Source of the DNA: a virus
Virus genome (UHGV): UHGV-0168748
DNA: 44,209 nucleotides
Reading direction: 5' to 3' (one strand)
Positions 1,647-4,623 of this stretch are shown in pieces. Every line of letters begins with the position of its first letter. Position 1 is the first letter of the stretch. A program made the position numbers and the translations under genes. Under the pieces are notes generated by a model. That model ran no database searches and was not told the origin of the DNA. It saw only the letters and a list, made by a program, of their open reading frames with translations.

Positions 1647-1680
1647 ACCTACCTCCTTTCGGAGGTAGGTGCTTTTATTT
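1647..1680. terminator. bidirectional rho-independent terminator
   Basis: Stem CCTACCTCC / GGAGGTAGG with loop TTTC, A-run upstream and T-run downstream, between convergent genes. Confidence 0.7.
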
Positions 1681-2509
1681 ATTTCGCCAAGTCTGCTTCT
1701 TTTACAAAGATGCCGTCGGCGTTCAGGTAACCTTTACGGTCTTTGATTTCGTGCCACGCCAAAGAGAAGCAATGGCGAATGTCCAGTTTGTAATACAGCG
1801 CGAGACAAGCAAGGCAATACAAACCATGATCGAACAGGTTATCGTCTTTGTTAGTATTTAAGAAAGACGTGGAAAAAGATTTAGTTGCTTCCAGGTATTT
1901 TCGATGTGGGAATTTATGATCGTTTGCACAGGCTTCAACATTTGCAACATCACGAAGTTGCATAGTTAGGCCACTAGTTATAATATCGGCCGTCGTTAAG
2001 TGTTCGTCGTGGTATTCTTCACCCAGTTCCAGAATGTTCACCAGAACCACCAACGCATCACCGATACCATCCATGATCAGTTCAGGTTTGTTTTTACTGA
2101 TACCTGTTGCGATTTCACCAAACTCTTCAAAGAACTTCGTGATTTGTGTTTCCACTTTACCGTTGTCGAGGATACCACGTTCCTTAGACCAGCCTTTAAC
2201 ACGCTCTACACAGTTCTCGATAGAGTAGACCGGAACCGATACGGTGTGCATTACTGTACCGTTATATTCGGCACCTGTAAGTTTAAGCGGTGCTTCAATC
2301 GTTTCGATGTCCAGTTCCTGATTACCGGTGTGACGTTTACCTTCTACACGAATACGGTTAGTACCAGGATTTACCCCGATGGTGTAGATAGCATCAAACT
2401 GAATCGCTTTCTCGTCCATAGCGCGTAGTTGTGTGTTAACTTCTTCCAGGAAGTTACCTGGGTTAAGAACGATGTTGTAAATAGCGTTGATGTTAAAACG
2501 TTCGCCCAT
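1679..2509 (-). CDS. MazG-like nucleoside triphosphate pyrophosphohydrolase with ~135-aa N-terminal extension
   Basis: C-terminal half has MazG-type acidic motifs (FEEFGEI...DGIGDALVVLVNILELGEEYHDE, WHEIKDRKG); start moved to ATG 2509 with GGAG RBS, track ORF starts at upstream GTG. Confidence 0.5.
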   Translation of the reverse strand: MGERFNINAIYNIVLNPGNFLEEVNTQLRAMDEKAIQFDAIYTIGVNPGTNRIRVEGKRHTGNQELDIETIEAPLKLTGAEYNGTVMHTVSVPVYSIENCVERVKGWSKERGILDNGKVETQITKFFEEFGEIATGISKNKPELIMDGIGDALVVLVNILELGEEYHDEHLTTADIITSGLTMQLRDVANVEACANDHKFPHRKYLEATKSFSTSFLNTNKDDNLFDHGLYCLACLALYYKLDIRHCFSLAWHEIKDRKGYLNADGIFVKEADLAK

Positions 2510-2713
2510 TTTAAATCTCCTAACAAAAAAATAATAAAGTAAAAGGGTGCTTGCATAAGCACCCCAGGAACTGTTAAATTTTGCAAGCCCCGCCTGAGCA
2601 GTTATCGTCTTCCGTAGTTGGGTCAGCACCCTTCTCTACGGTCGCTTCCGGGTCTAAGCCAGGGATTGCAAATTCGTCAGTTTCTTTAACGGTTTCTACT
2701 TTAACTTCTTCAG

Positions 2714-2941
2714 TCATTTTTTTTTAGTTTCCAAATTTCTTACAAAGGGGTTAACAGTTTTGATTTTAAGGTTAGCGAACGGCGACAGAAGTTTCGCCAT
2801 CGGTGCTAGACCTGGCGGCGTCTCTTTATATCGTACAACGCGTACCTTCGACTTACCAGGACCCTTACGTACACGGTTGTAGCCAATAAAATATACAGTA
2901 CCTGTAAAGTATCTAAGGCTGTGAAATCGTGGTTTTTTCAT
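2714..2941 (-). CDS. small basic protein (75 aa)
   Basis: Track ORF; lysine/arginine rich; its ATG overlaps the stop of the upstream 49-aa ORF (TGATG). Confidence 0.45.
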   Translation of the reverse strand: MKKPRFHSLRYFTGTVYFIGYNRVRKGPGKSKVRVVRYKETPPGLAPMAKLLSPFANLKIKTVNPFVRNLETKKK

Positions 2942-3090
2942 CAGACATCCCCAAAAGCCAGAAAGCGTTTACGACCCTTGTGTGGTCCTTTACGCCAGCG
3001 ACTAGCGATAGTTTTACGATTTACTTTGCAACGGATTCTCTTATTCAGATTGATATACTTTATAGTAACTTTAATGACATCATTCGTCAT
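2941..3090 (-). CDS. small basic protein (49 aa), not in ORF track
   Basis: Hand-translated MTNDVIKVTIKYINLNKRIRCKVNRKTIASRWRKGPHKGRKRFLAFGDV; GAGGG RBS; shares RKGPxK motif with the next ORF. Confidence 0.4.
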   Translation of the reverse strand: MTNDVIKVTIKYINLNKRIRCKVNRKTIASRWRKGPHKGRKRFLAFGDV

Positions 3091-3111
3091 AAAGAATTCC
3101 CTCATCATTAA

Positions 3112-3558
3112 TTAACCCATTAAATGGATTACGACGTCTTTAGTTACTGAGTTTGCCAGTAAGCGAAAGAACTTCATGTAACGGAACATGCTAAAGAAAA
3201 CCCCAGCGTTGTCTACAATAACAAGGCTGTATTTTTCTTTTTCTGTACCCATTTGATAACCAATGATTTGCGTGATATTCTCTGGTAAGTCTTCGAGACC
3301 CAAACGGAATAGCACATCGTCCTCTAAGAACCCTTTTGGGTTAACGAATAATACTTTCCCTTTGTGGTTCTTAGCTAACTTGACACCGAAGTCCGTAAGC
3401 CCCGTCTGTCTACCCGTACCGTAGCGGATAGTACGAAATTCAGATAAAGCTTTAGGTCCATAACGATCGGTAAATGGATTATCTTTAGAATCCAGATCGG
3501 TTAAACCTTTTAATAATTCTTCTACTACGATGTTATAGTTAACATGAGTTTTAGACAT
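3112..3558 (-). CDS. hypothetical protein adjacent to thymidylate synthase
   Basis: 148-aa ORF immediately downstream of thyA; no motif recognised, not DHFR-like. Confidence 0.55.
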   Translation of the reverse strand: MSKTHVNYNIVVEELLKGLTDLDSKDNPFTDRYGPKALSEFRTIRYGTGRQTGLTDFGVKLAKNHKGKVLFVNPKGFLEDDVLFRLGLEDLPENITQIIGYQMGTEKEKYSLVIVDNAGVFFSMFRYMKFFRLLANSVTKDVVIHLMG

Positions 3559-3588: not shown

Positions 3589-4623
3589 TTATACTGCGAC
3601 GGGGGCCGCAATATGTGGATGAGCTTGATAATCGACTAATTCGAAGTCTTCGTATTTGTATTCGAAGATAGAATCAGGTTTACGTTTGATAACCAGTTTA
3701 GGTAGCGGGTAGGGTTCGCGTGTAAGTTGAAGTTTTGCCTGCTCCAGATGGTTAGAATACAGATGAACGTCTACACCACTATAAACCAACTCGTCCGGAA
3801 CCATGTTCAGTTGTTGAGCAACGATGTGTGTTAACAACGCGTACGAAGCGACGTTAAATGGCGCGCCGAGTAGGTAATCGTTGCTCCGCATCATGTAAAA
3901 ACATGAAAGCTTACGGCGTGGAATGCCCTCACGATCTAAAGTTTCATGAAGCCGCTCTTCATCATCAATATCTTCGTGATTAATAAGCGGTGCGCTCGCA
4001 AATTTTTCCGGCTCGTTTACTTCGTACCAATCCAGTCGTTCAAGCAGTGTCATTTCTGTAGTGTAGAATTGGAAATAGTTGTGGCACGGGTTAAGTGCCA
4101 TATCGTCCAGGTCGGCTACGTTCCAGGCACTAACGATAATGCGTCGGGAGTCAGGGTCTTCACGAAGCTGTTGGATAACTTTACTGATCTGGTCATGTGC
4201 TTTTTCATAAACCAAATACGTCGTACCATCTTCCTTCATATTCCCGATATACTTGTAACCACGTTGTATTAGTTGTTGTGTACGCCCTACGTCATGGCAT
4301 TCCACAACCTTACAATCGCGCCATTCACGCCACTGTTTACCATAAACAGGTCCTAATTCCCCTTCCGCATTCGCCCACTCGTTCCAGATTCTTACTCCGT
4401 TCTCTTGCAGGTACTTCACGTTAGTGTCGCCGTTCAAGAACCACAGCAGTTCGTGGATAATACTTTTCAGGTGAACTTTTTTCGTAGTGACTAATGGGAA
4501 GCCTTCTCTCAGGTCAAAACGTAACTGACGACCAAAGACAGAAAGAGTTCCTACGCCTGTGCGGTCTTCCTTAACAACACCGTTATCCAGAATGTCTTGC
4601 ATTAACGCTAAATACTGTTTCAT
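3589..4623 (-). CDS. thyA: thymidylate synthase (ThyA family) with two insertions
   Basis: [36 protein letters not shown], catalytic [17 protein letters not shown]; C-terminal 50 aa near-identical in pattern to E. coli ThyA. Confidence 0.9.

Follow-up and report, generated by a model that had tools for sequence, protein, structure and literature searches.

A lineage-specific family of small basic RKGP proteins in a jumbo phage, encoded beside an acidic ORF resembling the C-terminal tail of NrdA

In large lytic phages, small accessory genes are found in hyperplastic regions, such as those between the essential genes of T4. At homopolymeric A tracts, −1 ribosomal frameshifting is known from dnaX and insertion sequence (IS) elements, where it takes place at A_AAA_AAG, and transcriptional slippage occurs on runs of at least nine A, an A9 run being long enough in E. 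coli. Among short basic motifs, the AT-hook consensus consists of an R-G-R-P core with basic flanks, and the C-terminal peptide of CleD folds around a c-di-GMP dimer. The motif of CleD is DRR-x11-[RK]RxxD, in which R169 is essential (PMC7382256). At the C terminus of NrdA, cysteines C754 and C759 serve as shuttle residues: they return the active site to its reduced state, and thioredoxin in turn reduces them (10.1101/2021.07.31.454598).

The window analyzed here is a stretch of 44,209 nucleotides of the virus genome UHGV-0168748. All long ORFs around positions 2714-3090 lie on the minus strand (Table 1). An earlier note on this DNA had described a 49-aa and a 75-aa ORF, here called ORF-A and ORF-B, as joined by a TGATG stop/start overlap, and both the sequence and the ORF list bear this out: the plus strand reads catca at positions 2939-2943, and the A of the ORF-A TGA doubles as the A of the ORF-B ATG. 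The overlap is thus real, but the description of two coupled ORFs was incomplete, since a third ORF of 47 aa (2717..2574) is chained to the pair in the same way, its start overlapping the ORF-B stop as ATGA, so that there are three. We refer to this 47-aa acidic ORF as the tail ORF.

Table 1. Features of the RKGP locus and its surroundings, listed from thyA to the MazG-like gene.
Feature	Coordinates	Strand	Evidence
Thymidylate synthase, thyA	4623..3589	−	phrog_160
148-aa gene, phrog_2586, function unknown; optional in relatives	3112..3558	−	PHROG match
Shine-Dalgarno GAGGG of ORF-A, 8 nt 5' of ATG 3090	3099..3103	−	read from sequence
ORF-A, 49 aa, RKGP family, truncated 'window-type' A	2941..3090	−	sequence and ORF list
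ORF-A motif RWRKGPHK	2977..3000	−	
Shine-Dalgarno GGGGA of ORF-B, 6 nt 5' of its ATG	2952..2948	−	sequence
TGATG stop/start overlap of ORF-A and ORF-B	2939..2943	−	sequence
ORF-B, 75 aa, RKGP family; conserved core ~residues 1-40	2714..2941	−	ORF list, pN/pS
ORF-B motif RVRKGPGK; predicted strand 2-strand 3 loop	2852..2875	−	low-confidence model
A9 homopolymer at the junction of ORF-B and the tail ORF	2717..2725	−	sequence
47-aa acidic tail ORF, pI 4.05, ending DDNCSGGACKI-stop	2574..2717	−	phrog_14561, E 1.6e-15
Hairpin with T-run, intrinsic-terminator-like, closing the cassette	2544..2565	−	
MazG-like pyrophosphatase, ATG 2512, 277 aa	start 2512	−	relatives and PHROG alignment

The minus-strand ORF of ORF-A extends over 2941..3108 and encodes either 55 aa or, when started at ATG 3090, 49 aa. 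The correct start is ATG 3090 and not the ATG at 3108, because the former is preceded by a Shine-Dalgarno sequence and equivalent Met starts are found in the homologues of relatives. The exact 49-aa protein is present on 347 contigs. As the earlier note stated, both proteins are very basic (pI 11.66 for ORF-A and 11.20 for ORF-B, with net charges of +13 and +17, respectively), and the two shared peptides that it quoted, RWRKGPHKGRKRF and RVRKGPGKSKVR, are both present. R-x-R-K-G-P-x-K lies ~25-35 residues from the N-terminus in each. In a six-frame translation of the 44-kb window, the pattern [RK].[RK]KGP.K has two matches, namely those of ORF-A and ORF-B, against a chance rate of 0.007 matches per window in a first-order Markov simulation of the window. 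The sequences show no sign of a homing-endonuclease remnant, a transmembrane segment or a signal peptide.

Aligned directly with BLASTP, ORF-A and ORF-B give no alignment, and their paralogy is visible only through intermediates and profiles. With hhalign, 28 columns of the A and B profiles fall in register (P = 0.0013). The alignment reveals a family plan in which the initial Met is followed by a hydrophobic strand that closes with Y-[FI] and, beyond a short loop, by a second strand; R-x-[RK]-K-G-P-x-K-x-[RK] comes next, ahead of a third strand, to which full-length members add an LLxxNPF-like segment; the likeness between the two reaches LLEANPFE in A and LLSPFAN in B. In the ORF-A of the window, the C-terminal LLEANPFE segment is missing and seven residues are inserted. 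A third paralogue (...SRIKKGPRKHRTKKVF...) occurs at three related loci (L001, L013 and L014). The paralogy that had been suggested on inspection is therefore upheld by the profile alignment, the common architecture and the third copy.

Searches of Pfam-A, PHROGs v4, NCBIfam and PADLOC returned no family match for ORF-A or ORF-B, the only listed matches lying far under threshold (DUF3195_C, E 0.3; Cas10_Id, E 0.022, 11 bits). Likewise, tblastn with both proteins against 50,697 phage records produced chance matches only (E ≥ 2); those to the N-terminus of an 'HNH endonuclease' and to portal proteins were rejected on this ground. A profile search of all 1.84 billion (1.84e9) protein cluster representatives retrieved five real clusters, all belonging to this locus, while a repeat protein (P0017) was discarded as spurious. 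A homology search with both peptides, as proposed in the earlier note, thus found no homologue outside the locus in Pfam, PHROG, NCBIfam or the 50,697 phage records. Moreover, the motif is absent from the complete genome of Cronobacter phage CR5 (224 kb), the nearest isolate, from 50 kb of syntenic sequence of Erwinia phage Caitlin and from the SPN3US locus, so that CR5, SPN3US and Caitlin count as having no copy, against 1 to 3 copies in close relatives. Because no family models match, only five clusters exist and three outgroups lack the motif, the RKGP family is new to the databases, clade-restricted and lineage-specific. Identity with an AT-hook was considered and rejected: in the motif, R/K comes before an invariant K-G-P, after which stand a variable residue and K, no aligned member contains G-R-P, and the Pfam search gave no AT-hook match.

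When the window was compared with the 50,697 phage records, megablast gave no match and blastn a single one, covering 93 bp of the tail ORF in Erwinia phage Caitlin. The gene content is syntenic with the 150-200 kb region of Caitlin (SbcC/SMC, endolysin, RNase H, UvsX, thyA, pyrophosphatase); for this reason we identify the phage as an undeposited SPN3US/CR5-like enterobacterial jumbo phage (~225 kb) occurring in Salmonella and Shigella assemblies. Metagenome and isolate-assembly contigs from Salmonella and Shigella samples (221-228 kb) contain the locus as well, and the relatives compared below are 16 related loci.

Gene order at these loci is given here from thyA to mazG, B::tail denoting an in-frame fusion of ORF-B with the 47-aa ORF. 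The window and L003 share the order 148-A-B-47aa. L004 has 148-A-B::tail, L002 has 148-A-truncated B-47aa, and L001 has 148-third paralogue-A-B-47aa. The order is 148aa-B::tail in L007-L011, 148-129aa-A-B::tail in L012 and L018, third paralogue-129aa-A-B-47aa in L013 and L014, and A-B::tail, with the 148-aa gene missing, in L015-L017. In Caitlin, CR5 and SPN3US, a small tail ORF is present and the RKGP gene is absent. ORF-B is found in every relative, always immediately upstream of the 47-aa ORF; ORF-A is absent from many of them. Relatives retain either the stop/start overlap or a close abutment, in forms that vary (1, 4, 23 or 29 nt). The A gene of L013 is a recombinant, the 5' 70 nt being of the L012/L001 type and the 3' 60 nt identical to the window type. 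The crossover falls on the RKGP codons, and RKGP variants recombine through the RKGP-coding stretch.

The interval between thyA and mazG varies in other respects as well. Optional genes of 98, 105/106, 129 and 148 aa are found there in L007-L018, which are close relatives with flanks ~95% identical, and the 148-aa gene of phrog_2586 is missing from L013-L017. In L011 (1-1005), a gene for a 269-aa GIY-YIG/NUMOD3 (I-TevI-like) endonuclease lies beside a 95-aa C-terminal fragment of thyA, which is thus split, and in L008 (857-2170) thyA is called as pieces of 254 and 99 aa; this split thyA resembles the intron/homing-endonuclease arrangement of T4 td. In CR5 (L020 2584-3069, CR5_114), the tail-like ORF overlaps a downstream gene annotated as similar to Arn.3 and does not have mazG directly after it, so the genes around the tail ORF differ between genera. 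On the mazG side of the window, the 316-aa GTG ORF called by the program (1679-2629, minus strand) overextends the MazG-like gene, so that it takes in the terminator hairpin and the last part of the 47-aa ORF. Further on, positions 1647-1670 (both strands) form a palindromic hairpin that is GC-rich, has 10 perfectly paired bp and is flanked by T-runs; located between the convergent MazG-like gene and a 187-aa virion-protein gene, it is likely a bidirectional terminator.

The junction of ORF-B and the tail ORF is variable in a distinct manner. When ORF-B proteins are clustered at 90% identity, eight of the 12 clusters are in-frame fusions of 120-121 aa with the 47-aa ORF. In the window, the A9 run supplies the three Lys codons that end ORF-B and closes on the A with which the next ATG begins. 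The run yields the heptamer A_AAA_AAA (2725..2719) immediately 5' of the ORF-B TGA, with the ATG of the tail ORF in the −1 frame. Across the relatives, run lengths of A4 to A9 determine whether the two ORFs are fused: A4 or A7 gives the B::tail fusion; A6 or A9, the latter being the state of the window, gives a TGA that overlaps the ATG, leaving the ORFs unfused; and A5 or A8 places the stop two codons further on, again unfused. There were 31 contigs with the 74-aa form (P0052), eight with the 76-aa form (P0054) and three with the window's 75-aa form. Because each allele occurs on several independent contigs, the differences in run length are not read errors. By contig count, fused alleles are no more common than split ones. 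Since unfused alleles are common, and since ORF-B is truncated 5' of the junction in L002 and P0016, a covalent link between ORF-B and the tail is dispensable. The adjacency of the two could merely reflect the site of gene insertion.

The configuration looked for in programmed −1 frameshifting, a slippery heptamer followed by an ORF in the −1 frame, is present in the window (A_AAA_AAA). Folding of positions 2620-2745 detected no stimulatory RNA structure 3' of the A9 run (z = −0.15 relative to shuffles), and no strong Shine-Dalgarno-like element was seen upstream of the heptamer. Possibly, slippage of the ribosome into the −1 frame on A_AAA_AAA, or one A added by RNA polymerase on the A9 run, would recreate the fusion at some level. 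The variation of the run looks more like that of a mutational hotspot than like a programmed event. The run resembles a contingency-type hotspot in a lytic phage, and its alleles cover all three reading-frame outcomes.

The tail ORF, which falls in PHROGs of unknown function and is preceded by a weak Shine-Dalgarno sequence only, is strongly constrained (pN/pS 0.08). Its conservation extends over 63 phage records from Enterobacterales jumbo phages, and it is a stand-alone gene of 47-78 aa in phages of the SPN3US, CR5, Machina and Caitlin types; the conserved module is IPGLDPxxGVEGGxDPxKEDDNC[TS]GGACKI followed by the stop, with variable N-terminal extensions. Its end matches that of E. coli NrdA (DDGCESGACKI) at nine of 11 positions in the same C-terminal register, a likeness that spans ~11-15 residues only. 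By our estimate, the chance of such a match is ~1e-4 when corrected for the comparison of 60 ORFs with 4,300 host proteins. With full-length NrdA as tblastn query, the best match is that of the last 15 residues to the tail ORF (E 0.79 in CR5 and 0.19 in the window), which alone is not significant; the rest of NrdA has no other tblastn match in the window or CR5. No NrdA or NrdB homologues were found in CR5. As the DNA differs from nrdA at synonymous sites, the tail is not a recent capture from NrdA. A word-indexed search with the 47-aa ORF recovered near-identical sequences only. In a phmmer search against the PDB, NrdA was not recovered, and an ankyrin match was set aside as compositional. 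Literature searches for a description of the tail ORF, for the peptide strings or for phage mimics of the ribonucleotide reductase (RNR) tail turned up nothing relevant.

Structure prediction gave limited confidence. The AF2 model of ORF-B, built with a shallow family alignment, reached a pLDDT of 50, which is poor, and places low-confidence strands at residues 6-12, 17-25 and 32-40; RKGPGK forms the loop that connects the second strand to the third. For the B::tail fusion, pLDDT was 44 and the tail was disordered. Tentatively, the RKGP core (~40-45 cationic residues) may be modeled as a three-stranded beta-meander bearing the motif in the strand 2-3 loop. Foldseek of the ORF-B model against the PDB found nothing below E = 2.8, the non-significant matches being mostly OB, PC4 or ribosomal proteins. 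A match to eS8 in profile searches of PDB sequences was rejected (E 1.7).

ORF-A and ORF-B are in our judgment highly likely to be real paralogous coding genes. The earlier note had raised the questions whether these frames are conserved in related phages and whether the plus-strand ORFs 2921-3115 and 2929-3111 might be the conserved ones instead. At each of the 16 related loci both sense frames are intact, whereas the plus-strand ORFs carry 1 to 3 stops each in several relatives, both being broken in L012 and L015-L017. In ORF-B, the variable sites are distributed over codon positions 1/2/3 as 18/15/37, and change is mostly synonymous (pN/pS 0.21 for codons 1-40 and 0.44 for codons 41-72, the C-terminal 35 residues being less constrained than the core); the other frames over ORF-B give 0.78 to 1.6, the wobble-aligned antisense frame excepted. 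For ORF-A, pN/pS is 0.55 at saturating divergence and 0.50 in the wobble-aligned antisense frame, from which this ratio cannot tell the sense frame; as the ORF-A types are too diverged for a clean estimate, we relied on ORF integrity in the relatives. That the plus-strand ORFs are the true genes, with the minus-strand frames as their shadows, has in view of these stops next to no chance. Both ORFs are open in the window, and the similar antisense ratio is what is expected of that frame, but the flanking genes and the terminator are all on the minus strand, and no antisense ORF spans paralogue B in any relative examined. It is also quite improbable that ORF-A and ORF-B are functionless, newborn or decaying filler ORFs of a hyperplastic region; that their openness is due to chance, or to constraints on the DNA such as the ribosome-binding sites of neighbors, is equally so. 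Such readings would accommodate the polymorphism in presence and copy number, the frameshifted or truncated variants (P0011, P0012, P0014, P0016 and P0033), the weak constraint on ORF-A and the C-terminal part of ORF-B, the restriction of the family to a single clade and the situation in L002, in which the B frame is lost, yet the DNA immediately 5' of the tail ORF is conserved. They fit poorly with the ratio of 0.21 in the ORF-B core, with the retention of start codons, Shine-Dalgarno sequences and stop/start overlaps, with the occurrence of ORF-B in every relative examined, and with an RKGP motif that is invariant across paralogues only 20-30% identical while its codons differ synonymously. 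Among the A variants, too, the aligned motif codons vary mainly synonymously (CGT/CGG, GGA/GGG/GGT, CCA/CCG, AAG/AAA, CGC/CGT, TTT/TTC). Given its ratio and its absence from many relatives, ORF-A may be nearly neutral.

What the proteins do is less clear-cut. The earlier note had proposed nucleic-acid-binding or virion internal proteins, which would be free-standing and coat or condense DNA or RNA by virtue of their charge, the downstream ORF being irrelevant. Extreme basicity (pI 11.2 to 11.7), the low-confidence small beta fold, of a kind common in nucleic-acid binders, the nature of the insignificant fold matches and the frequency of unfused alleles all agree with this proposal, which we nevertheless consider unlikely. 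It rests on charge alone; sequence and fold searches gave no significant match to a nucleic-acid-binding or virion protein; and the genomic context is a nucleotide-metabolism cassette with thymidylate synthase and MazG, not structural modules. Furthermore, ORF-A is dispensable, and fusion to the acidic tail, seen in most B clusters, brings the net charge to +6 in the P0005 fusion, against +17 for ORF-B of the window. Nucleic-acid binding is still a live alternative, and a virion role appears without support. A further reading likens the RKGP segment to CleD: it would be a ligand trap, rich in arginine, by which the phage proteins sequester a cyclic (di)nucleotide signal. The best PDB match of the A-family profile is indeed the 36-aa CleD peptide 6sft (AVAYVGPDRRRFNSADYKGPRK), which has Y..P...R...KGPRK in common with the profile, and both are short basic segments in which Tyr/Phe and Pro occur along with a K-G-P-R-K turn. 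At E = 1.2, which is chance level, this likeness lacks significance, and the defining residues are absent: KKF stands at the position of DRR, Gly/Ser at R169 and Arg/Val at D172. Identity as a c-di-GMP-binding peptide was rejected on the motif and this E value, and a ligand trap of any such kind is very improbable.

The overall best explanation, on which we stand evenly divided, is that the RKGP proteins are paralogues of which ORF-B is tied to the NrdA-tail-like peptide in a docking role. Its component parts differ in strength. A functional link between ORF-B and the tail ORF is moderately probable: recurrent fusion and fission, together with strict adjacency, suggest that ORF-B is probably tied to the peptide. 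The mechanism itself, by docking or a redox relay, is doubtful. The genes thyA-148aa-A-B-47aa form a single minus-strand gene run closed by the terminator, in which ORF-B is the fixed member and, in many lineages, the N-terminal domain of a 120-aa fusion. ORF-B and the tail peptide are presumed to work together, as a single polypeptide in the A4 and A7 alleles and, in the A5, A6, A8 and A9 alleles, as two products that translational coupling would keep in step. The likeliest job of the RKGP core would be electrostatic docking on a polyanionic partner, candidates being nucleic acid, the acidic tail or the protein targets of the tail. Docking would thereby place or regulate a free copy of the thioredoxin/glutaredoxin-reactive tail of the host reductase, in a group of phages that seemingly lacks an RNR of its own (absence established for CR5 alone, with 44 kb of the present phage covered). 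ORF-A would be an optional, faster-evolving paralogue without the tail cargo. Extended to SPN3US-, CR5- and Machina-like jumbo phages of Enterobacterales generally, the idea would be that a free copy of the NrdA tail serves to tap or rewire the relay from thioredoxin/glutaredoxin to RNR, with the newborn RKGP domain captured, in the present clade, as its carrier or docking module and the hypermutable poly(A) run switching between the fused and split states; we regard this extension as decidedly unlikely.

Taken alone, RKGP is one more family in the large pool of uncharacterized small phage proteins. Its locus provides a well-populated natural series, individual exact alleles recurring on tens to hundreds of contigs, in which a tiny gene family can be followed through duplication, recombination, loss and, by a change in homopolymer length, incorporation as a domain into its conserved neighbor. 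In addition, the tail ORF looks like a mimic of the redox tail of the host RNR, present in at least 63 phage records. If the link between ORF-B, the tail and RNR were functional, it would provide a testable mechanism for deoxynucleotide supply in jumbo phages without RNR; if the extended idea were true, it would represent a new kind of takeover of host dNTP supply together with domain birth, duplication and fusion caught in the act. The RKGP genes are genuine lineage-specific small accessory genes of phages, a modest finding that is raised by the RNR-tail mimic and the poly(A) toggle.

Compared with the known systems, the likeness to NrdA concerns the fusion partner of ORF-B and not ORF-A or ORF-B. 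The α subunit of class Ia RNR (E. coli NrdA) ends in ...QDDGCESGACKI and the 47-aa ORF in ...EDDNCSGGACKI, each followed by the stop. Like NrdA, the 47-aa module has the C-terminal Cys-x4-Cys pair, as Cys-x4-Cys-Lys-Ile-stop at the extreme C terminus, preceded by an acidic and probably disordered stretch. Unlike NrdA, it is a free-standing protein of 47-78 aa or an RKGP fusion; the reductase body is absent, there being no ten-stranded catalytic barrel with active-site cysteines in a protein of 47 to 120 aa. The junction resembles the frameshift sites of dnaX and IS elements in that A_AAA_AAA in the ORF-B frame stands immediately 5' of the stop, the following ORF being read in the −1 frame, and it resembles slippage sites in the A9 run of the window, the A4 and A7 relatives encoding the fusion directly. 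It departs from the dnaX and IS sites in that a downstream stimulatory structure was not found and in that the variation is genomic, between alleles. Finally, as in the hyperplastic regions of T4, the RKGP ORFs are tiny, overlapping, lineage-specific and variable in presence, and they lie beside nucleotide-metabolism genes and mobile endonucleases (GIY-YIG in L011). Unlike the genes of those regions, they constitute a paralogous family with an invariant motif, one member of which is now a domain of a conserved neighbor.
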